This document shows, in pieces, positions 3,599 to 36,283 of a stretch of 64,000 bases of DNA (its first letter is position 1; every line of letters begins with the position of its first letter). The notes under the pieces were generated by a model that saw nothing but the letters and a program-made list of their open reading frames with translations, had not been told where the DNA came from and ran no database searches. The stretch lies in NCBI RefSeq assembly GCF_013315695.1, contig NZ_CP054353.1. The stretch is one strand, 5' to 3'. Source of the stretch: Escherichia coli (GTDB lineage Bacteria; Pseudomonadota; Gammaproteobacteria; Enterobacterales; Enterobacteriaceae). Made by a program: the position numbers and the translations under genes.

Positions 3599-4196
3599 TC
3601 TGCTGCCACCGGGTTCAACTTCACTGGAGCGCCGACTGGCGCAAACCTGTAGCGGGATTTCTGATTTGCAGGTGCCGCTGCGTGACTTGTGGAATCCGGC
3701 TACCTGTCCGGTCAGCTTCCTGCCTTATCTCGCCTGGGCGTTCTCTGTGGATCGCTGGGACGAGGGCTGGACAGAAAGCGTCAAACGCCAGGTAGTGAAG
3801 GATGCTTTTTATATTCATCAGCATAAAGGAACCACCAGTGCCGTACGGCGAGTGGTGGAACCGTTCGGATTCCTGATCCGCATTATTGAGTGGTGGCAGA
3901 CCGGAGAAACACCGGGCACGTTTCGCCTGGATATCGGCGTGCAGGACCAGGGCATCACTGAAGATACCTATCTGGAACTTGAGCGACTGATAAGCGATGC
4001 CAAACCATGTAGCCGCCACATGATCGGCATGTCCATCAATCTGCAGACCAGCGGCCCGCATTGGGTGGGAGCCGCCAGCTATCTTGGCGAAGAAATCACG
4101 ATCTATCCGTATATCAACGAAACGATTATTTCCGGTGGCACCGCGCATGAAGGCGGGGCGGTCCATGTTATTGACACAATGAGAGTGAATCCATGA
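3591..4196 (+). CDS. I: Baseplate protein I
   Basis: 201 aa; position between J and H. Confidence 0.7.
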   Translation: MNSLLPPGSTSLERRLAQTCSGISDLQVPLRDLWNPATCPVSFLPYLAWAFSVDRWDEGWTESVKRQVVKDAFYIHQHKGTTSAVRRVVEPFGFLIRIIEWWQTGETPGTFRLDIGVQDQGITEDTYLELERLISDAKPCSRHMIGMSINLQTSGPHWVGAASYLGEEITIYPYINETIISGGTAHEGGAVHVIDTMRVNP

Positions 4197-5314
4197 GCAC
4201 AAAATTTTATACCCTGCTGACGGATATTGGCGCGGCGAAACTTGCCAGCGCCGCCGCGCTCGGTGTGCCGCTAAAAATTACCCATATGGCGGTGGGCGAT
4301 GGCGGTGGAGTATTGCCAACGCCGGACGCAAAGCAGACGGCACTGGTAAATGAGAAACGCCGGGCTGCGCTGAATATGCTTTATATCGACCCGCAGAACA
4401 GCAGCCAGATTATTGCCGAACAGGTGATCCCTGAAAACGAGGGCGGTTGGTGGATACGTGAAGTGGGCTTGTTTGATGAGTCCGGGGCATTGATTGCCGT
4501 GGGCAACTGCCCGGAAAGCTATAAGCCGCAACTGGCTGAAGGTAGCGGGCGCACTCAGACCGTGCGCATGGTGCTGATTACCAGCAGCACGGACAATATC
4601 ACCCTGAAAATCGACCCTGCTGTAGTGCTGGCAACCCGCAAGTATGTGGATGACAAGGCACTGGAGCTGAAGGTGTACGCAGATGATCAGATGGCAAAAC
4701 ATCTTGCCGCACCGGACCCGCATTCACAGTACGCGCCAAAAGCCAGCCCGACATTTACCGGAACCCCCAAAGCGCCAACGCCAGCGGCGGGGAATAATAC
4801 CACGCAGGTTGCGACCACTGCGTTTGTACAGGCGGCACTGACGGCCCTTATTAATGGTGCGCCAGCCACGCTGGACACGCTGAAAGAAATAGCCGCAGCC
4901 ATTAACAATGATCCGAATTTCAGTACCACCATTAACAATGCGCTGGCACTAAAAGCGCCACTGTCGAGTCCGGCACTCACCGGAACGCCAACAGCACCTA
5001 CTGCGGCACAGTCGGTCAACAATACACAGATTGCCACTACAGCTTTTGTGAAATCAGCGATTGCAGCAATGGTGGGTTCTGCACCCGCGGCACTGGATAC
5101 ACTGAACGAACTGGCGGCGGCACTGGGGAATGATCCGAACTTTGCCACGACAATGCTTAATGCGCTGGCAGGTAAACAACCGCTGGACAATACGCTGACT
5201 AATTTGAGTGGAAAGGATGTAGCTGGTCTTCTCGCATACCTTGGTTTGGGAGAAGGCGGCAAAACTGGGTGTGCCTGTTCCAGGGGCCTTCAGATACCGG
5301 ACAACAGGCTTTGA
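4193..5314 (+). CDS. H: Tail fibre protein H, conserved N-terminal/shaft part; ends 19 codons after the inversion crossover site
   Basis: N-terminus MSTKFYTLLTDIGAAKLA...MAVGDGGG and repeats TGTPxAPT / ALDTLNELAAALGNDPNF resemble P2 gpH; 373 aa versus about 669 aa for P2 H. Confidence 0.7.
   Translation: MSTKFYTLLTDIGAAKLASAAALGVPLKITHMAVGDGGGVLPTPDAKQTALVNEKRRAALNMLYIDPQNSSQIIAEQVIPENEGGWWIREVGLFDESGALIAVGNCPESYKPQLAEGSGRTQTVRMVLITSSTDNITLKIDPAVVLATRKYVDDKALELKVYADDQMAKHLAAPDPHSQYAPKASPTFTGTPKAPTPAAGNNTTQVATTAFVQAALTALINGAPATLDTLKEIAAAINNDPNFSTTINNALALKAPLSSPALTGTPTAPTAAQSVNNTQIATTAFVKSAIAAMVGSAPAALDTLNELAAALGNDPNFATTMLNALAGKQPLDNTLTNLSGKDVAGLLAYLGLGEGGKTGCACSRGLQIPDNRL
5229..5254. repeat. 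Left crossover site of invertible segment (hix/gix-like 26 bp)
   Basis: ttctcgcatacc-tt-ggtttgggagaa; half-sites inverted; lies inside H coding frame (LAYLGLGE). Confidence 0.6.
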
Positions 5315-5668
5315 AATGCAAGTGGTGATGGATGGATGAAATTACCCGGAACTGGAAAATCCTGCAAAATGGTCGTGGTGATTTACGCCGAGTTTATCGA
5401 CGCTGGGATGAGAATTACATTGATTAGGCATCGTGTTTTATTGAGTAAGGCCGGACTGCGGAAAAGCACCGTCATCCTGGTGATGGCGGTGCGACTTCAA
5501 AAGCGCTGGGGGAACTGGCGATGATCTTCAGAAGGCCCAACGTTAACAGGGGGCTTTATGCCGCTGCTTACAGAACGTCATCCAACCAGCGACACGGTAT
5601 CGATGAACGACAGTTGGTGGGCTGTTGGCGGGAGTAATTTTATCCAGGGTGATTTATATTGAACGAAT

Positions 5669-5914
5669 ATGTTTATAGCTGCAATGGATAACGCCGTATT
5701 TTCCCGAGGATACCACGATTGCGGGGAATATATAAATCATAGGGATGGGATTGGTGAGACGCGGGAATATATTTCTGCATCAACTCAAAATATTTGCAGT
5801 GGGAGTTTCGGTATTGAACCGCCACAAGGACGCTCCGGTACATCTAAGGCTGGAGATGATTTGCTGTTCTGCGTGGAGAAAATCATGGGAATATGTGTCA
5901 GAAGAACTTATTGA
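5669..5914 (+). pseudogene. Tail fibre assembly (tfa)-like gene fragment, apparently frameshifted
   Basis: Translation MDNAVF...DGIGETREYISAS... shares protein-level similarity with a minus-strand copy near 6480-6680; ORF breaks after 81 aa and continues in another frame. Confidence 0.3.
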
Positions 5915-6436
5915 AATTACTGAATCAGAAAACACCGGAAACCAAGATGCCAACGAAATACAGAACAGGCGACTATCCCGAAAATACAGCCGCTATCGGT
6001 CGCCATGAACGATAAATGAACTGGCGCAATATAATTGACAGATACTGGATTATCTGGACGGTGGAACTGGTTGATTCCTCCAGCACAGCGCCAGTCATTG
6101 ATTGATGGCAATGGCCTCCGGCAGTCTGGCCAGATGAAACATCCGGCGCGGGACTGTAAACTGTTGCCGTCACCGAAACAATGTAATCCAGCGCAGCGTT
6201 AAGTTGGTTGACGCTGGTGACGGCAACAGATACCGTCCGGCCGGATGTCATCAGTTGAACTGCCTGAGGCGCAGGCCATTTGCATCAATCTGGTGACTGG
6301 GAGGAATCAACCAGTTCAGTGCGTCCAGATAATCCAGCCACAAATTACCCATTTTCGCCAGTTCCCATTTATCAGACGACGTTAGCGGCTTTACCGGGTG
6401 GTTGTATTTTCATGATATTCGCCTGGCTTGATTTAA

Positions 6437-6625
6437 TTAGTAGCTCTGTCTTTCTGATTCAGTTATAGACGATTTCACTTCGATGGTGGGTGGATGATTT
6501 TTAAATCCACAGAACGGCAAATTCATAACCAGCCTTACGGATTTTGAGCGTTGTGGCAGGTTCTGGAATAAACTCACTGCAAGATATTTTTGATGCAGAA
6601 ATATATTCCCGCGTCTCACCATCAT
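6437..6625 (-). pseudogene. Second tfa-like copy in opposite orientation, frameshifted
   Basis: 30-bp perfect inverted repeat with 5753-5782; conserved peptide ...YDGETREYISAS... lies in a different frame from the track ORF here. Confidence 0.3.
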
Positions 6626-6676
6626 AGTTATAGACGGTCAATATATCCACGCCTTCGTGGTAATGCCTTGCGCTAT

Positions 6677-7129
6677 TTAAACACGGCGTCGTTCATTAAT
6701 GCAGCCCTGACGATAAGTTAAACCAACAGCCCACGGGTTGTAATTCGCCGATACCGATGTCGCTGGTGAATGACGTTCGGTGATGGGATCAGAATTAAAG
6801 CCGGTTAACCCCCTGGGCCTTCGTGCAGTCATCACGAATTGTCGCCCAGCGCCCATTCCTCTTTGAGCCATCACCCAGAATGAGTACAGGATGACGGTGC
6901 TTTTCCAGCATTTTGGGGAAAGGGATGCTAAAAACACGTCCTCATTGTTACCGCGATAATGTCGGCGTAACCGCGAATAACGACCGCATAAATCAGGTAA
7001 TTTATTTGTTGGATAATTGCCAGTTCCATCCATCAAAATGCCGCACCGTTGCAAAAGCCAGCCTGTCCGGTATCTGAAGGCCATGGAACAGTCACACCAT
7101 CCCGTTTTGCAGAGCTTCTCCCAAACCAA
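6677..7129 (-). other. 150-codon open frame reading inward from right crossover site; status uncertain
   Basis: Long stop-free frame, +1 relative to the H continuation frame; W/R/C-rich translation. Confidence 0.2.
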
Positions 7130-7141
7130 CGTTTATGAAAA
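7116..7141. repeat. Right crossover site of invertible segment
   Basis: ttctcccaaacc-aa-cgtttatgaaaa; inverted relative to left site (core TT versus AA). Confidence 0.6.
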
Positions 7142-7196: not shown

Positions 7197-7763
7197 ATGC
7201 TTATTGGCTATGTACGCGTGTCAACAAATGACCAGAACACCGATTTGCAACGTAATGCACTGAACTGCGCGGGATGTGAGCGGATTTTTGAGGATAAAAT
7301 CAGTGGCACTAAGTCCGACAGACCAGGGTTGAAAAAACTGCTCAGGACACTATCGGCAGGAGACACGCTGGTTGTCTGGAAGCTGGACAGGTTGGGGCGC
7401 AGTATGCGGCATCTTGTTACGCTGATAGAAGAGTTGCGTCAGCGAGGCGTGAATTTCCGAAGCCTGACTGACAGTATTGATACCAGCACCCCAATGGGCC
7501 GTTTCTTTTTTCATGTCATGGGTGCCCTGGCTGAAATGGAACGCGAACTGATAGTTGAACGTACCAGGGCAGGGCTGGCTGCAGCTCGTGCCAAAGGCAG
7601 AGTAGGTGGACGCCGTCCTAAGTTGACCACCGAACAGTGGGCACAGATTGGGCGTTTACTCGAGGCCGGAGAATCAAGACAGCGTATTGCACTGATTTTT
7701 GATGTAGGCGTTTCTACCATTTATAGAAAATTTCCGGCAAATAAGAGCAATGAATCTCCCTGA
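7197..7763 (+). CDS. pin: Serine DNA invertase, Pin/Gin/Cin/Hin family
   Basis: MLIGYVRVSTNDQNTDLQRNAL... with catalytic Ser in VRVST and C-terminal HTH; track ORF 7017-7763 over-extends upstream. Confidence 0.9.
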   Translation: MLIGYVRVSTNDQNTDLQRNALNCAGCERIFEDKISGTKSDRPGLKKLLRTLSAGDTLVVWKLDRLGRSMRHLVTLIEELRQRGVNFRSLTDSIDTSTPMGRFFFHVMGALAEMERELIVERTRAGLAAARAKGRVGGRRPKLTTEQWAQIGRLLEAGESRQRIALIFDVGVSTIYRKFPANKSNESP

Positions 7764-7904: not shown

Positions 7905-9077
7905 ATGGCTCAGGATTACCACCATGGGGTGCGCGTTGTTGAAGTCAACGAAGGCACCCGATCCATTACCACGGTGAGCACCGCCATCGTGGGTATGGTC
8001 TGCACGGGCGACGATGCCGATGCAAAAATGTTTCCTCTTAATAAACCCGTGCTGATCACTGATGTGCTGACTGCCAGCGGTAAAGCGGGTGAGTCCGGCA
8101 CGCTGGCCCGTTCGCTGGACGCCATCGCTGACCAGGCAAAACCCGTGACCGTTGTTGTGCGTGTGCCGCAGGGTGAAACGGAAGAAGAAACCACAACCAA
8201 TATCATCGGCGCAGTGACCGCCGAGGGTAAAAAAACAGGCATGAAAGCCCTGCTATCTGCCCAGTCACAGCTCGGCGTTAAACCGCGCATTCTCGGCGTG
8301 CCAGGTCACGATAACAAAGCCGTTGCTACTGAGTTGCTGAGTGTGGCGCAAAGCCTGCGTGGGTTTGCCTACCTGTCAGCATATGGCTGCAAGACGGTAC
8401 AGGAGGCGATCACTTACCGTGAAAACTTCAGCCAGCGCGAAGGGATGCTGATCTGGCCTGACTTTACTGGCTGGGACACGGTGCTGAACGCCGAAGCAAT
8501 GGCATATGCCACCGCCCGTGCGCTTGGTCTGCGTGCCAAAATTGATGAGCAGACCGGGTGGCACAAAAGCCTGTCCAACGTGGGCGTGAACGGTGTCACC
8601 GGAATTTCTGCAGATGTGTTCTGGGATCTGCAGGACCCGGCAACCGATGCAGGTCTGCTGAACCAGAACGACGTCACCACGCTTGTGCGTAAAGACGGTT
8701 TCCGCTTCTGGGGTTCCCGCTGCCTGAGTGATAACCCGCTCTTTGCCTTCGAAAACTACACCCGCACGGCGCAGGTGCTGATGGACACGATGGCAGAAGC
8801 ACACATGTGGGCGGTGGATAAACCGCTTAACCCGTCGCTGGCCCGCGACATTATCGAAGGTATCCGCGCCAAAATGCGCAACCTGGTCAGTCAGGGCTAT
8901 CTCATTGGTGGTGATTGCTGGCTGGACGAGTCGGTGAACGACAAAGACACGCTTAAAGCCGGAAAACTCACCATCGACTACGACTACACGCCAGTGCCGC
9001 CACTTGAAAATCTGATGCTGCGCCAGCGCATCACCGATCAGTACCTGGTGAATTTCGCCAGCCAGGTCAGCGCGTAA
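7905..9077 (+). CDS. FI: Contractile tail sheath protein FI
   Basis: 390 aa; AGGAGG RBS; size and position match P2 FI. Confidence 0.85.
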
Positions 9078-9086
9078 GGGGACAAC

Positions 9087-9602
9087 ATGGCTTTACCACG
9101 TAAATTAAAACATCTGAACTTGTTTAACGACGGGAACAACTGGCAGGGGATCGTTGAGTCGCTGACGCTGCCGAAATTCACCCGCAAATATGAGAAGTAT
9201 CGCGGCGGCGGTATGCCGGGGGCGGTGGATGTGGATCTGGGACTGGATGACAGTGCACTGGATACAGAATTTTCCATTGGTGGTACTGAACTGCTGCTGT
9301 TTAAGCAGATGGGCAAATCCACGGTGGATGGCATCCAGCTGCGCTTTACCGGCTCTATCCAGCGTGACGATACCGGGGAAGTGCAGGCCGTGGAGCTTGT
9401 CGTGCGTGGACGTCACAAAGAAGTGGATTCCGGCGAGTGGAAGACGGGCGAAAGCAACACCACCAAAGTGACCAGTACCAACAGCTACGCGAAGCTGACC
9501 ATCAATGGTGAGGTGCTCTATGAAGTGGACCTTATCAACATGGTGGAAATTGTGGACGGTGTGGACCTGATGGAAGCGCACCGCAACGCCCTCGGCCTCT
9601 GA
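9087..9602 (+). CDS. FII: Tail tube protein FII
   Basis: 171 aa immediately after sheath gene. Confidence 0.85.
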   Translation: MALPRKLKHLNLFNDGNNWQGIVESLTLPKFTRKYEKYRGGGMPGAVDVDLGLDDSALDTEFSIGGTELLLFKQMGKSTVDGIQLRFTGSIQRDDTGEVQAVELVVRGRHKEVDSGEWKTGESNTTKVTSTNSYAKLTINGEVLYEVDLINMVEIVDGVDLMEAHRNALGL

Positions 9603-9656: not shown

Positions 9657-9959
9657 ATGAGCGATAAACAGACTGAAAAGACCATTCAACTGGATACCCC
9701 CATCATGCGCGGTAAAACAGAAATTACCGAAATTGTGTTGCGTAAACCGCAGTCTGGTGCGCTGCGCGGCACACGCCTGCAGGCCATTATGGATATGGAT
9801 GTGAACGCGATGATGACCGTGATCCCCCGCATCTCCAGTCCGGCACTGACTGCACAGGAAATCGCAGAGATGGACCCGGCAGATCTCACAGCCATGTCGG
9901 TTGAGGTTGTCACTTTTTTGTTGAAGAAGTCGGTGCTTGCCGGTTTACCGACAGCCTGA
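9657..9959 (+). CDS. E: Tail assembly chaperone E
   Basis: 100 aa upstream of tape measure; contains slippery TTTTTTG at 9914-9920. Confidence 0.7.
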   Translation: MSDKQTEKTIQLDTPIMRGKTEITEIVLRKPQSGALRGTRLQAIMDMDVNAMMTVIPRISSPALTAQEIAEMDPADLTAMSVEVVTFLLKKSVLAGLPTA

Positions 9960-10093
9960 CGGTTGACGATCTGGTGGCAGATATCGCCACCATTTTTCAC
10001 TGGCCGCCATCCGTTACTGACGTTATGCCGCTGACCGAAGTGCTGGAATGGCGGTATAAAGCGATTCAGAGAAGCAGGGCCAACGATGAGTGA
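9657..10093 (+). CDS. E+E' fusion chaperone made by programmed -1 frameshift
   Basis: -1 frame after TTTTTTG stays open to TGA at 10091-10093, overlapping T start; conserved feature of tail chaperone genes. Confidence 0.5.
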
Positions 10094-13000
10094 TAACAAC
10101 CTGCGCCTGCAGGTCATTCTTAATGCGGTTGACAAACTCACCCGCCCATTCCGTGCTGCACAGGCCAGTTCGAAAGAGCTGGCTGGCGCAATCAGAAACT
10201 CCCGTGACGCATTAAAGCAACTCAATCAGGCGGGTAACAGCCTGGAAAAATTTCGCAAGCTGCAGGCTGATAACAAGAAGTTAGGTGACAGGCTGAACTA
10301 TGCCAGACAGAAGGCTAATTTGCTTAGCTCTGAGCTGGAGGCGATGGAACAACCATCACAACGGCACCTTGTGGCTTTAGGTCGGCAAACGCTGGCAGTC
10401 CAACGCCTGGAAGAACAACAAAAATATTTGCAGAAGCAAACGGCGCTTGTGCGTGCAGAACTGTACCGGGCGGGAATTTCTGCGAAAGATGATGCGGGAG
10501 CAACTGCCCGTTTAGCCCGTGAAACATCACGTTATAACCAGGAATTGTCGAAACAGGAGGCGCGGCTGAAGCGACTGGGTGAAGCTCAGCGCAGGATGAA
10601 TGCGGCGCGTGCCAGTTATGCCCGTTCGCTGGAGGTGCGTGATCGTATTGCAGGAGCCGGAGCCACCACCACGGCTGCAGGGCTGGCAATGGGAACACCA
10701 GTGATGGCGGCAGTAAAAAGCTATACCAGCATGGAAGATGCCATGAAAGGTGTGGCAAAGCAGGTCAATGGTCTGCGTGACGATAATGGCAACCGCACTG
10801 CACGTTTTTATGAAATGCAGGATGCCATCAAGGCTGCCAGCGAACAGTTGCCGATGGAAAACGGTGCGGTGGACTTCGCTGCACTGGTTGAAGGTGGTGC
10901 GCGCATGAACGTCGCAAACCCTGACGACAGCTGGGAAGACCAGAAACGTGACCTGCTGGCCTTCGCCAGTACGGCAGCAAAGGCGGCAACAGCCTTTGAG
11001 CTGCCAGCGGATGAACTGTCAGAAAGTCTGGGGAAAATCGCCCAGCTCTACAAAATACCTACCCGCAATATTGAACAGCTCGGCGATGCGCTGAACTATC
11101 TGGATGATAACGCCATGTCGAAAGGGGCGGACATCATTGATGTCATGCAACGTCTGGGCGGTGTGGCTGATCGTCTGGATTATCGTAAAGCGGCGGCGCT
11201 GGGTTCCACCTTTCTGACACTGGGCGCTGCGCCAGAGGTTGCAGCCAGTGCAGCAAACGCGATGGTGCGTGAATTGTCCATTGCCACCATGCAAAGCAAG
11301 AGTTTCTTTGAAGGGATGAATCTGCTGAAACTCAATCCTGAAGTGATTGAAAAGCAGATGACGAAGGATGCGATGGGAACTATCCAGCGTGTGCTGGAGA
11401 AGGTGAACGCACTGCCGCAGGACAAGCGTCTGTCTGCCATGACCATGTTGTTTGGTAAAGAGTTTGGTGATGACGCGGCGAAACTGGCAAACAACCTTCC
11501 GGAACTGCAGCGCCAGCTAAAACTGACTGCGGGCAATGATGCGCTCGGTTCCATGCAGAAAGAATCCGACATCAACAAAGACTCACTTTCTGCGCAGTGG
11601 TTGCTGGTCAAAACCGGAGCGCAGAACACCTTCAGCAGCCTGGGCGAAACGCTGCGCCAGCCGCTGATGGATATTCTGTACACGGTAAAAAGCATCACGG
11701 GGGCGTTGCGCCGCTGGGTGGAAGCTAACCCGGAACTGACAGGCACACTGATGAAAGTAGCGGCTGTTGTGGCTGCGGTTACCGTAGGCCTCGGCACCTT
11801 AGCGGTGGCGCTGGCTGCAGTGCTGGGGCCGCTGGCAGTCATCCGTTTGGGATTCTCTGTGCTGGGTATCAAAACGTTACCTTCCGTTACGGCAGCAGTA
11901 ACACGAACCAGCAGCGCGTTGTCCTGGCTGGCTGGCGCTCCACTGGCACTGCTGCGACGCGGGCTTGCTTCATCGGGCAACGCAGCGGGTTTACTTACTG
12001 CGCCGTTGTCGTCTTTGCGCCGCATGGCATCACTGACGGGGAATGTCCTGAAAACTGTAGCAGGTGTGCCGGTTGCACTGTTGCGGTCTGGATTATCCGG
12101 TTTACGTGCTGTTGCTGTGATGTTTATGAATCCACTGGCAGCACTACGCGGTGGACTGGCTGCCGCAGGCGCGGTGCTGCGAGTACTGGCATCCGGTCCG
12201 CTGGCGATGCTGCGCGTTGCCCTGTATGCCGTATCTGGTCTGTTAGGTGCTCTGCTCAGTCCGATAGGTCTTGTGGTTACTGCACTGGCGGGCGTGGCGC
12301 TGGTTGTCTGGAAATACTGGCAACCCATCACCGCATTTCTCGCTGGTGTGGTGGAAGGATTCAACGCGGCGGCAGGTCCCATCAGTGCAGCATTCGAACC
12401 GCTTAAGCCTGTGTTTCAGTGGATTGGCGATAAAGTGCAGGCGTTGTGGGGCTGGTTTACTGATCTGCTGACGCCCGTTAAGTCGACCTCTGCCGAACTG
12501 CAGAGTGCAGCGGCAATGGGGCGGCGATTCGGAGAGGCACTGGCGGAAGGGCTGAATATGGTCATGCATCCGCTGGACTCCCTGAAATCCGGCGTTTCCT
12601 GGTTGCTGGAGAAACTTGGCATTGTCAGTAAAGAGGCCGCAAAGGCAAAACTGCCGGAAAGCATGACGCGTCAGCAACCTGCGACGGTGAATGCAGACGG
12701 TAAAGTGATGATGCCATCGGGTGGTTTTCCGTCATGGGGATATGGCTTTGCGGGGATGTATGACAGCGGCGGGTATATCCCGCGCGGGCAGTTTGGCATC
12801 GTCGGTGAAAACGGGCCGGAAATTGTTAACGGCCCGGCAAATGTGACCAGCCGGAGAAATACAGCTGCACTGGCTGCCGTTGTTGCCGGAATGATGGGCG
12901 TTGCTGCCGCGCCAGCAGAGCTTCCACCGTTGCACCCTTTGGCACTTCCCGCGAAAGGTGGAGAAGCAATTGTGAGTCGCGCAGCCACTGTGCCGCTCGT

Positions 13001-13163
13001 TCAACGGATTGAGGCACCGACGCAGATCATCATTCAGACGCAGCCAGGACAAAGTGCGCAGGATATTGCGCGGGAGGTGGCACGCCAGCTTGATGAACGT
13101 GAACGCAGGCTGAAGGCAAAAGCCAGGAGTAACTACAGCGATCAGGGGGGATACGACGCATGA
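10086..13163 (+). CDS. T: Tail tape measure protein T
   Basis: 1025 aa; coiled-coil N-terminus, repeated hydrophobic PLAxLRxGL motifs; position after E/E'. Confidence 0.85.
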   Translation: MSDNNLRLQVILNAVDKLTRPFRAAQASSKELAGAIRNSRDALKQLNQAGNSLEKFRKLQADNKKLGDRLNYARQKANLLSSELEAMEQPSQRHLVALGRQTLAVQRLEEQQKYLQKQTALVRAELYRAGISAKDDAGATARLARETSRYNQELSKQEARLKRLGEAQRRMNAARASYARSLEVRDRIAGAGATTTAAGLAMGTPVMAAVKSYTSMEDAMKGVAKQVNGLRDDNGNRTARFYEMQDAIKAASEQLPMENGAVDFAALVEGGARMNVANPDDSWEDQKRDLLAFASTAAKAATAFELPADELSESLGKIAQLYKIPTRNIEQLGDALNYLDDNAMSKGADIIDVMQRLGGVADRLDYRKAAALGSTFLTLGAAPEVAASAANAMVRELSIATMQSKSFFEGMNLLKLNPEVIEKQMTKDAMGTIQRVLEKVNALPQDKRLSAMTMLFGKEFGDDAAKLANNLPELQRQLKLTAGNDALGSMQKESDINKDSLSAQWLLVKTGAQNTFSSLGETLRQPLMDILYTVKSITGALRRWVEANPELTGTLMKVAAVVAAVTVGLGTLAVALAAVLGPLAVIRLGFSVLGIKTLPSVTAAVTRTSSALSWLAGAPLALLRRGLASSGNAAGLLTAPLSSLRRMASLTGNVLKTVAGVPVALLRSGLSGLRAVAVMFMNPLAALRGGLAAAGAVLRVLASGPLAMLRVALYAVSGLLGALLSPIGLVVTALAGVALVVWKYWQPITAFLAGVVEGFNAAAGPISAAFEPLKPVFQWIGDKVQALWGWFTDLLTPVKSTSAELQSAAAMGRRFGEALAEGLNMVMHPLDSLKSGVSWLLEKLGIVSKEAAKAKLPESMTRQQPATVNADGKVMMPSGGFPSWGYGFAGMYDSGGYIPRGQFGIVGENGPEIVNGPANVTSRRNTAALAAVVAGMMGVAAAPAELPPLHPLALPAKGGEAIVSRAATVPLVQRIEAPTQIIIQTQPGQSAQDIAREVARQLDERERRLKAKARSNYSDQGGYDA

Positions 13164-13645
13164 TGATGGTGCTGGGATTGTACGTGTTTATGCTGCGCAC
13201 CGTTCCGTATCAGGAACTGCAGTATCAACGCAGCTGGCGACATGCGGCAAACAGTCGGGTAAACCGACGTCCGTCCACGCAGTTTCTGGGACCGGAAAAC
13301 GACATGCTGACGCTTTCCGGTGTTCTTATGCCGGAGATAACAGGCGGCAGGCTGTCGTTGCTGGCACTGGAGCAGATGGCAGAACAGGGGAAAGCATGGC
13401 CCCTGATTGAAGGCAGCGGCACGATTTACGGCATGTATGTGATTGAGGGACTGAATCAGACTAAAACGGAGTTTTTCCGCGACGGTATGCCGCGCCGGAT
13501 TGAGTTCACCCTGTCGCTCAAACGAGTGGATGAATCCCTGTCCGATATGTTCGGTGATCTCAGTGCGCAACTGAATAATCTGCAGGACACGGCAACGTCT
13601 GCCTTAAGCGATATCAGTAAAACGGTGGGAGGGCTGCTGTCGTGA
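13160..13645 (+). CDS. U: Tail protein U
   Basis: 161 aa; position and size match P2 gpU. Confidence 0.75.
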   Translation: MMMVLGLYVFMLRTVPYQELQYQRSWRHAANSRVNRRPSTQFLGPENDMLTLSGVLMPEITGGRLSLLALEQMAEQGKAWPLIEGSGTIYGMYVIEGLNQTKTEFFRDGMPRRIEFTLSLKRVDESLSDMFGDLSAQLNNLQDTATSALSDISKTVGGLLS

Positions 13646-14742
13646 ATTTCAGCGCTGAACTGCTTAACACAGGCAACAAAACTCCCGCATTCAGCATCAG
13701 TATTGAGGGCAGGGATATCACCACTGTGCTGGATAACCGCCTGATGAGTTTGACGCTGACGGATAACCGGGGCTTTGAAGCGGACCAGCTTGATCTGGAG
13801 CTGGATGACGCTGACGGAAAAATCGTGCTGCCGCGCCGTGGTGCGGTCATTACGCTGGCGCTGGGCTGGAAGGGGCAGCCGCTTTTCCCTAAAGGGGCAT
13901 TCACAGTGGACGAGATTGAACACACTGGCGCACCGGACCGCCTGACTATCCGGGCGCGAAGTGCTGATTTTCGGGAAACGCTGAATACCCGCCGTGAAAA
14001 ATCGTGGCATAAGACCACCGTCGGGGAAGTGGTGAAGGAAATAGCCGCGCGGCACAAGCTGAAGATGGCACTGGGTAAAGACCTGTCGGATAAGCCCGTG
14101 GAGCATATAGACCAGACTAATGAGAGTGACGGCAGTTTTCTGATGCGGCTGGCGCGACAGTACGGTGCCATCGCGTCGGTGAAAAATGGCAATCTGTTAT
14201 TCATCCGGCAGGGGCAGTGCAAAAGCGCCACTGGTAAACCTCTGCCAGTGATCACTATCACACGCAAGGACGGTGACAGTCACCGATTTATCCTGGCAGA
14301 TCGCGGAGCCTACACGGGCGTAATTGCCAGCTGGTTGCATACCCGCGAACCTGCGAAGAAAGAAAGCACCACGGTGAAGCGTAAGCGCAGAACTAAGAAG
14401 CAGAAGAAAGAGCCAGAAGCGAAGCAGGGCGATTACCTGGTGGGTACGGATGAAAACGTGCTGGTACTTAATCGCACTTATGCCAACCGGAGCAACGCCG
14501 AACGAGCGGCGAAAATGCAGTGGGAACGCCTGCAACGCGGCGTTGCGTCATTTTCTCTACAACTGGCAGAAGGGCGGGCAGATCTCTACACGGAAATGCC
14601 TGTGAAGGTCAGTGGTTTTAAACAGCCGATAGATGATGCGGAATGGACCATTACGACTCTGACACATACCGTCAGCCCGGATAACGGTTTTACAACCAGT
14701 ATTGAACTTGAAGTGAAAATTAATGATCTTGAAATGGAATAA
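13642..14742 (+). CDS. D: Tail/baseplate hub protein D
   Basis: 366 aa; GTG start overlapping U stop; position matches P2 gpD. Confidence 0.75.
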   Translation: MNFSAELLNTGNKTPAFSISIEGRDITTVLDNRLMSLTLTDNRGFEADQLDLELDDADGKIVLPRRGAVITLALGWKGQPLFPKGAFTVDEIEHTGAPDRLTIRARSADFRETLNTRREKSWHKTTVGEVVKEIAARHKLKMALGKDLSDKPVEHIDQTNESDGSFLMRLARQYGAIASVKNGNLLFIRQGQCKSATGKPLPVITITRKDGDSHRFILADRGAYTGVIASWLHTREPAKKESTTVKRKRRTKKQKKEPEAKQGDYLVGTDENVLVLNRTYANRSNAERAAKMQWERLQRGVASFSLQLAEGRADLYTEMPVKVSGFKQPIDDAEWTITTLTHTVSPDNGFTTSIELEVKINDLEME

Positions 14743-14810: not shown

Positions 14811-15029
14811 ATGATGAATTGTCCAAAGTGTGGTCATGCGGCGCACACAAGGAGCAGTTTTCAAGTAACGGAAAGCACCAAAGAACGTTACTGCCAGTGC
14901 CAAAATATTAACTGCGGGAGCACTTTTGTTACCCATGAAACAGTGGTCCGGTTTATTGTGACACCTGCAGTGATTGCCACAGCCCCTCCACATCCATTGC
15001 CAGATGGTCAGGGCCATATGAATTTTTAA
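14811..15029 (+). CDS. ogr: Ogr zinc-finger late-gene transcriptional activator
   Basis: MMNCPKCGHAAH...CQCQNINCGSTF with four-Cys zinc finger; about 72 aa from ATG at 14811. Confidence 0.85.
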   Translation: MMNCPKCGHAAHTRSSFQVTESTKERYCQCQNINCGSTFVTHETVVRFIVTPAVIATAPPHPLPDGQGHMNF

Positions 15030-15269: not shown

Positions 15270-16346
15270 TTAATAGAATGTTTCTACTAAAGCGTTTACA
15301 TGTTCTCTAGCCTCGCGATAACGCTCTCTTACAACGTTGATAATTTCACCGTTTGGCATTTCATAATGAGTTTGAGCAGGAAGTTTGAAAAGAGGAATTC
15401 CCAAACTTGCAGAAACTTTCCCTGAAGTATGAAAATCTTTAACTTCAGAAAGATAGGCCGCCTCCCATTCATTTAAGTTATTGATTTCACGATATCGCTC
15501 CGTGAATAGTTCTGGGAAGTTCTGATATTGTGTAAAAGCAAAAGCACAAAGGGATTCTTTGATTGAATCATAAGCTCTGGCAACACCAAGATTAGACGTA
15601 AAGTTATTGAAAACAAAGCGATCTAACTTAGGTAATGTAAGATTATTATTCACAACTTGGCTATGAAAAGTGACAAACTTTTCTGCATAGGTTTGTGCAG
15701 CAGAAGAGGGATAATGGCCATAAAGAAGCATCATTATTCCTTTCATCCCTTCTAATGAACTGTAATCAGCCATCATAGGGACGACCAGTCTATCTGAAGA
15801 TAGTAGAGCCATTTGGGTGTAGATAGAAAAACTTGGATTACAGTCAATAAAGACAACCATATCATCGTAATCATCAATATCATGTTCTAGAGTACATAGT
15901 CGACGAAATGCTGTCATATACTCTTTCCATGCGAACCTGTTAGCTGGACTGATAACTGCATAGTTCAGTGCAAGAGTAAGGGACTCGAGGAATGAATCAC
16001 CGGCGATGAGAAACAAATTATCGCTGATTTCATCATTATATTGGTTTACTGCTACTTTGAAAGAACGTCGAATACTGGTGAAATTTGAATGGCCATCTAA
16101 AAGCCAGTCCAGAAACCCTACGACATTTTTGCGTGTTCGTGAAGATTGTAGCTCTTGATTAGTATTGTACCCACGATCACCTCCTCCAAGCAGGTATTGA
16201 GAAATGTTTGCTTGCGGACACAAATCTATTACTAGTACCTGTGTGCTGGGATTTTCTTCTGCATACTGTGCAGCAATGTTGAAACCAAGTGTTGTTTTTC
16301 CAACACCGCCTTTGTTGTTATACATTGCATAAATCTTAACTGCCAT
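15270..16346 (-). CDS. Orphan ParA/MinD-like P-loop ATPase with uncharacterised C-terminal extension; prophage cargo gene of unknown function
   Basis: 358 aa; deviant Walker A KGGVGKTT at residues 12-19, A' motif VLVIDLCPQAN, Walker B-like MVVFIDCNPS; AT-rich; opposite strand to phage late genes; no ParB-like neighbour. Confidence 0.75.
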   Translation of the reverse strand: MAVKIYAMYNNKGGVGKTTLGFNIAAQYAEENPSTQVLVIDLCPQANISQYLLGGGDRGYNTNQELQSSRTRKNVVGFLDWLLDGHSNFTSIRRSFKVAVNQYNDEISDNLFLIAGDSFLESLTLALNYAVISPANRFAWKEYMTAFRRLCTLEHDIDDYDDMVVFIDCNPSFSIYTQMALLSSDRLVVPMMADYSSLEGMKGIMMLLYGHYPSSAAQTYAEKFVTFHSQVVNNNLTLPKLDRFVFNNFTSNLGVARAYDSIKESLCAFAFTQYQNFPELFTERYREINNLNEWEAAYLSEVKDFHTSGKVSASLGIPLFKLPAQTHYEMPNGEIINVVRERYREAREHVNALVETFY

Positions 16347-16641: not shown

Positions 16642-17004
16642 TGGTGGAGCTGGCGGGAGTTGAACCCGCGTCCGAAATTCCTACATCCTCGGTACTACAT
16701 GCTTAGTCAGTCTTTACATTCGCTTGCCAGCTGCGGACGGACACGCCACTAACAAACTAGCCTGATTAAGTTTTAACGCTTCAACCCCAGGCAGGGCTTC
16801 CACGCGATCTCTTTTGGGTTTGACCTCTCTTGATCCCCGTCCTAAGAGCGGAGGCTAGGGAGAGAGGGCTCTAAGCAGGTTATTAAGCTGCTAAAGCGTA
16901 GTTTTCGTCGTTTGCGACTATTTTTTGCGGCTTTTTACGAGGCCAACCGCCCCTCGGCATGCACCTTGGGTTTCGCAAATCCCGTCGAATCCAGAATCAG
17001 CCCC
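16642..17004 (-). ncRNA. ssrA: tmRNA (SsrA)
   Basis: Reverse complement reads GGGGCTGATTCTGGATTCGACGGG...GGACGCGGGTTCAACTCCCGCCAGCTCCACCA; tag-coding region present. Confidence 0.95.
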
Positions 17005-17218: not shown

Positions 17219-17701
17219 TTAACGGTGGGCGTTTTTCATGATACGCGCTTTATCCACCTGCCATTCGCGTTCTTTGATATCTGAACGTTTATCATGCTGT
17301 TTCTTACCTTTGGCGACGCCGATTTTCACTTTGCACCAGGCATTTTTCCAGTACAGGGAGAGCGCCACTACGGTATAGCCTTCTCGATTGACGCGACCGT
17401 ACAATGAGTCCAGTTCGCGCTGGTTGAGAAGTAACTTGCGGGTACGGGTAGGATCGCACACCACATGCGTGGAGGCCACGGCCATTGGCGTGATGTTAGC
17501 GCCAAACAGAAATGCCTCTCCGTCACGCAGAAGGACGTAGCTGTCGCTGATATTGGCTTTTCCTGCGCGCAGGGATTTAACTTCCCAGCCTTGCAGGGCA
17601 AGTCCCGCTTCGAACTCTTCTTCGATAAAGTATTCGTGACGGGCGCGCTTGTTAAGCGCGATGGTCGCTGAACCAGGTTTATGTGCTTTTTTCTTCGTCA
17701 T
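17219..17701 (-). CDS. smpB: SsrA-binding protein SmpB
   Basis: 160 aa, recognised as E. coli SmpB; adjacent to ssrA. Confidence 0.95.
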
Positions 17702-35446: not shown

Positions 35447-35465
35447 AGTGTTGCCTTTTTGTTAT

Positions 35466-35498
35466 CAATAAAAAAGGCCCCCCGATTTGGGAGGCCTT
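35466..35498 (-). terminator. pheA attenuator terminator
   Basis: Minus strand ggcctcccaaatcggggggcc hairpin plus TTTTTTATT between pheL and pheA. Confidence 0.75.
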
Positions 35499-35544
35499 AT
35501 TGTTCGTCTTCGCATTCTGTTTCACACGACGAAACGCCTCCCAT

Positions 35545-35592
35545 TCAGGGGAAGGTAAAAAAGAATGCGAAGAAAAACGGTGTGTGTTTCAT
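35545..35592 (-). CDS. pheL: pheA leader peptide PheL
   Basis: MKHTPFFFAFFFTFP*; seven Phe codons; K-12 as recalled has Ile at position 4. Confidence 0.85.
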   Translation of the reverse strand: MKHTPFFFAFFFTFP

Positions 35593-35695
35593 GTTTGTTT
35601 CCTTAAGTGACTTTAGTACAGTACCCGTACTGTTTTCACGCTGTCAACAAAAAACGCGCCCGAAGGCGCGTTGGCGATACACTCAATATAAAGGA

Positions 35696-36091
<396 letters not shown>

Positions 36092-36283
36092 TCAAAATGT
36101 GTGATGGAAATCTCATAATTTTGTCACTTTTTGTCAACGAATCTTTTTTGTGAGAAATCGCAGGAAGAGGTGTTTTTTACTTGAGGAATATCTCAAAGCG
36201 AGCCATATTTGATGAGATCGATAGTGACTAAATCGCTTCAGTTTCACAACTAACAGAATAAAAAAACGGCAGCTCAAGGGCTG

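Follow-up and report, generated by a model that had tools for sequence, protein, structure and literature searches.

A predicted programmed -1 frameshift site of the E/E+E' chaperone type in the tail operon of a P2-like prophage of Escherichia coli

Near the end of gene E, in the tail operon of a prophage on an Escherichia coli chromosome, stands the heptamer TTTTTTG: is this the place at which a minority of ribosomes would step back by one base and read on into a second frame, or do the two frames represent two separate genes, the product of a slipping RNA polymerase, or a signal that is inherited and no longer used? The initial annotation of this DNA - a stretch of 64,000 nucleotides, hereafter the window - took the heptamer for a programmed -1 frameshift site of the conserved E/E' (G/GT-like) kind, followed by a -1 frame that stays open for about 58 codons, up to a TGA at 10091-10093 that overlaps the start of the tape-measure gene. 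Both a reading of the sequence and a script place TTTTTTG at 9914-9920, near the end of E; the open -1 frame consists of 57 sense codons and the stop, and this stop lies in an overlap of 8 nt with the tape-measure gene, which begins with the ATG at 10086. The conserved arrangement, for its part, is supported by each of the sequence-level features of P2 that we tested, namely gene position, Pfam families, alignment and heptamer. In our judgement, the heptamer is very probably the programmed -1 frameshift signal of the E/E+E' chaperone gene of a Fels-2/Wadgaonvirus-type P2-like prophage in the E. coli chromosome. To judge from its sequence, the locus appears to be an intact and ordinary frameshift site of a P2-like tail chaperone gene; the feature is already known, and biologically we describe one more intact copy of a textbook recoding signal, which raises no new question. 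The practical value lies elsewhere, in the correction of a common split annotation.

Coordinates of the E/E' locus and of the tail genes around it, counted from the first letter of the window
Feature	Coordinates	Strand	Basis
Gene FI, tail sheath, first of the FI-FII-E-T-U-D block	7905..9077	+	PF04984, PF17482, PF22671
Gene FII, tail tube, directly upstream of E	9087..9602	+	PF04985 Phage_tube, 201 bits
Gene E, tail assembly chaperone, zero-frame product, 100 aa, 10.9 kDa	9657..9959	+	ORF, Pfam, PHROG
Composite E+E' coding region (predicted), 145 aa, 16.2 kDa	9657..10093	+	conceptual fusion, P2 alignment
Shift window, only stretch with frames 0 and -1 both open	9905..9959	+	-1 TGA 9902-9904 to E stop 9957-9959
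Slippery heptamer T TTT TTG, X XXY YYZ register, predicted -1 shift site	9914..9920	+	sequence, conservation, P2 annotation
E' extension, 57 codons + TGA, -1 frame, encodes GpE domain	9920..10093	+	translation, Pfam, PHROG
Gene T, tail tape measure, 1025 aa	10086..13163	+	ORF, PF10145
GpU	13160-13645		Pfam
GpD	13642-14742		Pfam

The setting of the heptamer within its reading frame is the first element to consider. Around it the codons of the E reading frame (9657-9959) are GTC ACT TTT TTG TTG AAG, and since E reads ACT TTT TTG the seven bases stand in X XXY YYZ register, with a T at codon position 3 followed by TTT and TTG; in a scan of the whole ORF, TTTTTTG was the only in-frame heptamer of this form. 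The E stop follows 13 codons (39 nt) downstream, and the -1 frame, entered at 9920, runs through its 57 sense codons (VEEVGACRFTDSL...QRSRANDE) before the TGA is reached. On the other side, the script located a TGA at 9902-9904 that closes the -1 frame upstream of the heptamer, so that only a -1 shift between 9905 and 9959 could lead to the complete fusion; in this shift window the heptamer stands at the start, 10 nt in. The composite region is laid out as 9657-9920 in frame 0, G9920 read a second time, and 9920-10090 in frame -1. How often would such a combination turn up by chance? We estimated this from 47 proxy genes of the 64-kb window, comprising about 16,900 codon positions: X XXY YYZ heptamers stand in frame at 0.26% of codons (44 in total), a -1 frame open for at least 57 codons follows only 4% of positions, and none of the 17 heptamers composed of A and T alone is followed by at least 57 open -1 codons.

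By its ORFs and Pfam families, E is flanked by FII, the tube gene, and T, the tape measure, within an FI-FII-E-T-U-D block. Zero-frame E matches Pfam PF10109 (Phage_TAC_7) with 66.4 bits, for a cut-off of 25, and PHROG 103 ('tail protein'), and the 57-aa -1 extension matches PF06528 (Phage_P2_GpE) on its own, with 65.3 bits for a cut-off of 23, along with PHROG 1756 and 6416. NCBIfam holds no model matching the E+E' fusion, and a sequence search of the PDB returned no related solved structure at E <= 1.

Alignment with P2 E/E' was the check that the initial annotation had named, and P2 (RefSeq NC_001895, P2p25/P2p26) resembles our locus at every level we compared. Its E and E+E' belong to the FETUD tail operon, with the gene order likewise FI-FII-E/E'-T-U-D-ogr; it has the same two Pfam families, PF10109 and PF06528, and the same T TTT TTG in the same register, and its 57-codon -1 extension ends 8 nt into T, as here. 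The conceptual 145-aa fusion aligns with P2 gpE+E' end to end, at 47.5% identity over 139 aa (E 8e-49) and with no gap across the junction: E and P2 gpE, the N-terminal part, share 43% identity (BLASTP, E 4e-24), and the -1 extension aligns with that of P2 over its full length. At the DNA level, by contrast, our locus hardly matches the P2-type phages (69% over 166 nt with fiAA91-ss), and the two loci differ in detail. E has 100 aa here and 91 aa in P2, the E stop lies 39 nt from the heptamer rather than 21 nt, the zero-frame tail that follows the shared slip-site Phe-Leu counts 12 aa (LKKSVLAGLPTA) rather than 6 (SPNSVQ), and the overlap of E' and T is ATGAGTGA, with a TGA stop, where P2 has ATGAGTAA, with a TAA stop. 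In the RefSeq record of P2, E+E' is entered as a joined CDS with the remark '-1 frameshift; essential tail protein', a 'site of -1 translational frameshift' is marked next to the homologous TTTTTTG, and the words 'essential tail protein' are applied to E and E+E' alike; the Fels-2 and PsP3 records contain equivalent frameshift notes. As described in PMC5009743 (the review of Atkins et al. 2016), the P2 fusion is known to be made by -1 frameshifting in vivo, at roughly one-tenth of the level of E; the same article describes the frameshift efficiency of P2 and its relatives as 2- to 3-fold above that of lambda (citing Christie et al. 2002), and low-level frameshifting of the G-T type as widely conserved among long-tailed dsDNA phages. 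On every sequence-level count, our locus would thus be classed as a member of the P2 E/E+E' family, and that slippage occurs in this prophage we infer from its homology to P2.

How far does the arrangement extend beyond P2? The E-E' region shares 97-98% DNA identity with Escherichia phage 500465-1 (Wadgaonvirus) and with Klebsiella prophage-type phages, and 85-87% with Fels-2, SopEPhi, SEN8 and RE-2010. These four Felsduovirus phages, 500465-1 and the Klebsiella 4LV2017-type prophages have an identical layout and heptamer, with E' peptides that are identical to ours or differ at 1-7 residues, and the Fels-2 record itself states that gpE+E' is formed by translational slippage. All 12 of the 12 annotated phage relatives - among them P2, fiAA91-ss, ENT90 and ST147-VIM1phi7.1, and spanning at least 7 named Peduoviridae genera and a plasmid-borne prophage of Arsenophonus - have T TTT TTG in register, an extension of 56-58 codons, and a stop that overlaps the T start. 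Across 13 diverged aligned sequences, none of the seven columns of the heptamer varies (0/7), against 18/21 and 14/21 in the 21 nt on either side. A slippery heptamer and the 57-codon extension are likewise present in 80/80 IMG/VR loci, a sample of close relatives only (at least 90% identical, 64 distinct DNA sequences): 79 have TTTTTTG and one has TTTTTTA. In this last relative the extension is intact, the frame-0 leucine codon changes from UUG to UUA, still Leu, and the first -1 codon changes from Val to Ile. Identical E proteins occur in 8 IMG/VR loci and identical E' peptides in 3. Two residues set our copy apart, an Arg where most relatives have Gly (...QRS(G/R)ANDE, with Arg in 3 of the 80 IMG/VR loci), and Met17 where 500465-1 and E. 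coli O177:H21 have Lys; both differences are allelic only.

More distant phages keep the principle and sometimes change the letters. When the fusion was searched against a phage collection by tblastn, 421 records matched, 387 of them at no less than 80% coverage, and among those listed the full-coverage matches came in two pieces, as expected for two reading frames. We inspected ten distant records. The two-frame layout is kept with T TTT TTG in phages of Pseudomonas, Burkholderia, Ralstonia and Acidovorax, and with other heptamers at the same place in Vibrio VP58.5 (T TTT TTC), Mannheimia 587AP1 (G GGA AAG) and P88_4B11 (A AAT TTT); all three replacements obey the X XXY YYZ rule of tandem slippage. 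An apparent natural fusion of E and E' in the Ralstonia phage RSY1 (AB981169.1 ORF30, 156 aa) we reject as a mis-framed annotation. What was deposited as ORF30 is the -1 frame, which is spuriously long in this GC-rich region (locus 252-722); the real E frame (...LAVEVTGFLLTKAQQ...) is present, with an in-register T TTT TTG at locus 549, and by its sequence RSY1 appears to have the normal E/E' frameshift arrangement.

What would the slip look like, and what would its product do? Most ribosomes would translate E in frame 0 as far as the stop at 9957-9959 and release the 100-aa gpE. A minority would slip with tRNA-Phe on UUU (9915-9917) and tRNA-Leu on UUG (9918-9920), both moving back by one base onto UUU UUU; reading would then resume at GUU (9920-9922) and continue for 57 codons, giving a 145-aa E+E' with the junction ...VVTFL/VEEVG.... 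If P2 and lambda G/GT are a guide, the part common to both products, E, would coat the tape-measure protein T, and the E' part would recruit the tube protein, which would let tube and sheath reach the right length as they polymerise; the virion would contain neither E nor E+E'. This division of labour between E and E' we infer from the lambda model, as presented in PMC5009743, in which the short protein covers the tape measure and the long one provides the bridge to the tube subunit (Levin, Hendrix & Casjens 1993; Xu, Hendrix & Duda 2004, 2013, 2014, all via PMC5009743).

The likeness to lambda G/GT is one of layout. There too, the tube gene and the tape-measure gene are separated by a pair of overlapping ORFs, which are joined by a -1 frameshift of low efficiency close to the end of the first; the extension likewise ends 8 nt into the tape-measure gene (T 10115-10549, H from 10542). 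The slippery site of lambda is G GGA AAG, unlike the T TTT TTG found here, and lambda is a siphovirus without a sheath. Homology to lambda gpG or gpT did not emerge from a Pfam scan (E <= 0.01) of E, E' and the fusion, which gave only PF10109 and PF06528. From its sequence, then, our locus would belong to the functional class of lambda G/GT and stand outside the lambda protein families.

Whether the signal is used in this strain depends on the state of the prophage. The element adjoins the ssrA tmRNA gene (16642-17004, minus strand, tag ANDENYALAA), the 3' end of which faces the prophage, with smpB next (17219-17701, minus strand); this gene arrangement suggests integration next to ssrA, and E. 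coli O177:H21 has the same ssrA/smpB/prophage layout. Several E. coli chromosomes share the host DNA of the window (relA, rlmD, mazEF) at 100% identity. A gene for a ParA-like P-loop ATPase of 358 aa (15270-16346, minus strand) lies at the prophage's right end, flanked by ogr (about 14811-15029) and ssrA. It matches PHROG 164 (E 7.5e-40) and, weakly and in its N-terminal part, NCBIfam ParA models, with no match in PADLOC; as E. coli O177:H21 has a different hypothetical gene there, this looks like a variable cargo slot.

A further observation concerns the tail fibres. An invertible segment at about 5229-7141, bounded by inverted repeats at 5285-5303/7064-7082 (19 nt, 100%) and 5229-5255/7115-7141, adjoins an intact serine DNA invertase gene (7197-7763) and contains no intact ORF on either strand. 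Its two alternative cassettes, which lie on both strands and comprise gp53-like C-termini and Tfa chaperones, can be made out only across many stops and frame changes, and the tail-fibre gene at 4193-5314 follows a relative at 99% identity as far as nt 5251 before it meets a stop at 5314. Identity to an intact relative falls to 64-88% only within the segment, and 73% of its bases match its own reverse complement, compared with 60-61% in intact relatives. The segment is either decayed or gene-converted, or else a consensus artefact of a population of mixed orientation.

Since this segment lacks intact ORFs, the prophage may not be fully functional, and the frameshift site could then be intact yet currently unused - an inherited relic in a defective or silent element, with no E+E' made in this strain. 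We consider this quite improbable. The left part of the prophage lies outside the window, but FI, FII, E, E', T, U, D and ogr have each kept their full length, 1,119 E. coli records contain the tail block at 97-98% identity, the E' peptide recurs unchanged in the three IMG/VR relatives mentioned above, and the damage to the tail-fibre segment may itself be an artefact of assembly. In any case, a relic would concern the present activity of the element and not its identity.

A separate small gene is the reading implied by much of the existing annotation. In RefSeq, the homologous stretch is a stand-alone CDS in E. coli O177:H21 (WP_000763311.1), and it is annotated in the same way in phages 500465-1, SEN8 and RE-2010 and in the ST15/ST437 phages; here, this would correspond to a 39-aa 'GpE family phage tail protein' starting at GTG 9974 (9974-10093), for which the heptamer would be irrelevant. 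The PF06528 match starts at the very residue encoded by this GTG, a domain boundary that probably reflects the annotation of the seed sequences. However, GTG 9974 is the first start-like codon in the whole extension, it has no GGAG, GAGG or AGGA in the 18 nt before it, and a codon other than a start takes its place in 6 of 23 relatives (GAA in ArsFIN13, GCC in RSY1, TGG in VP58.5, ATT in Mannheimia 587AP1, and ATC in both Alfacinha1 and 3LV2017). The 18 codons between the heptamer and the GTG are conserved with P2 (VEEVGACRFTDSLTVDDL here, VAELGAVTFPKNLSVDDL there), and the P2 record describes E' only as part of E+E'.

The pattern of substitutions speaks to the same point, as the coding signature of the -1 frame begins at the heptamer and not at 9974. 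Upstream of the heptamer, the mean pairwise difference at frame-0 codon positions 1/2/3 is 0.28/0.21/0.51; downstream, it is 0.16/0.41/0.26, which is the usual third-position excess shifted into the -1 frame. Variable columns are spread differently over the codon phases on the two sides of the heptamer (chi-square p = 3.7e-4), and the -1 pattern holds already in the 39-nt overlap with the E tail. On the non-conservation of the start codon and on this coding signature, we reject a stand-alone E' from GTG 9974 as very improbable.

If E' is instead translated as part of E+E', the consequences for annotation are straightforward. RefSeq/PGAP and many phage records present E' as an independent CDS of 39 to 45 aa ('GpE family phage tail protein'), whereas a joined CDS, the correct form, is given for P2 and PsP3, and Fels-2 has at least a note on the slippage. 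The correct products of our locus would be a 100-aa gpE and a 145-aa gpE+E' formed by a -1 shift at 9920, and a RefSeq/PGAP-style listing as a 100-aa protein and an independent 39-aa 'GpE family' protein would be incorrect. As 1,330 of 5,426 complete E. coli genomes match the tail block (best identity 97.9%), and the two-frame layout recurs in hundreds of phage records, the split annotation is widespread.

Slippage of RNA polymerase on the homopolymeric run of six T, by which some mRNAs would gain one U and be read straight into E', would reach the same frame and give a near-identical protein (junction TFFV rather than TFLV), but it is highly unlikely: six T are short for this mechanism, as in bacteria it becomes efficient only on runs of about nine A or T, the G at the seventh position is kept in 79 of the 80 close relatives, and the heptamers of Mannheimia 587AP1 (G GGA AAG) and P88_4B11 (A AAT TTT) contain no long homopolymer and still conform to X XXY YYZ, which favours ribosomal over transcriptional slippage.

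Does ribosomal slippage at this heptamer receive help from its surroundings? In bacteria, -1 tandem slippage on an X XXY YYZ heptamer, with a G-ending codon read by a weakly pairing tRNA, is exemplified by the dnaX gene of E. coli (tau/gamma), whose A AAA AAG is accompanied by a Shine-Dalgarno-like element 10 nt upstream and by a hairpin downstream. The E/E' locus differs from dnaX both in its stimulators, none of which is supported here, and in the outcome of the shift, which would be a C-terminal extension and not early termination. The 80 nt after the heptamer (9921-10000) fold with an MFE of -28.4 kcal/mol (z = -2.88 against shuffles), the proximal 40-nt hairpin (9929-9960) is not better than shuffles (z = -1.70), and the RNAalifold consensus of 11 relatives, at -6.3 kcal/mol, contains essentially no covariation (-0.15 kcal/mol). 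Folding, shuffles and the 11-relative consensus thus revealed no conserved RNA structure downstream, and with a modest fold and no covariation we regard a stimulatory structure as unsupported; for a short UCGG...CCGA stem, coding constraint in both frames is a confounder. Upstream, a GAGG or AAGG is present at 9903-9906 in most relatives, about 7 nt before the heptamer and hence closer than the element of dnaX. It codes for a conserved E/K-V and is replaced by AAAG in ENT90 and GAGC in ArsFIN13, and as a Shine-Dalgarno-like stimulator it is unsupported.

The end of the extension offers another point of possible regulation. The ATG of T (10086-10088) overlaps the E' stop by 8 nt (ATGAGTGA, 10086-10093), and the stop of frame-0 ribosomes lies 127 nt upstream of the T start. 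Perhaps initiation on T is coupled, by re-initiation, to the termination of frameshifted ribosomes at this overlap: if so, the frameshift rate would help to set the ratio of T to E+E' in addition to that of E to E+E'. We hold this to be rather unlikely. The overlap, as ATGAGTGA or ATGAGTAA, is kept in 80/80 IMG/VR loci and in the enterobacterial relatives; it is missing in the distant PhiBP82.2, VP58.5, Mannheimia 587AP1 and Alfacinha1, and is therefore not essential to the class.

Two other heptamers in the window deserve a brief mention. An in-register G GGG GGA at 13145-13151 stands four codons before the stop of T, and gene U (13160-13645) lies in the -1 frame relative to T, with a 4-nt overlap at the T stop (13160-13163), such that a -1 slip there would give a T-U fusion; as T and U of P2 do not overlap, this is probably a coincidence. 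The second, an in-register A AAA AAG on the plus strand at 35470-35476, is followed by 44 open -1 codons and lies near the 5' end of a host proxy ORF with a TTG start (35459-36118), where it may be situated upstream of the real start codon.
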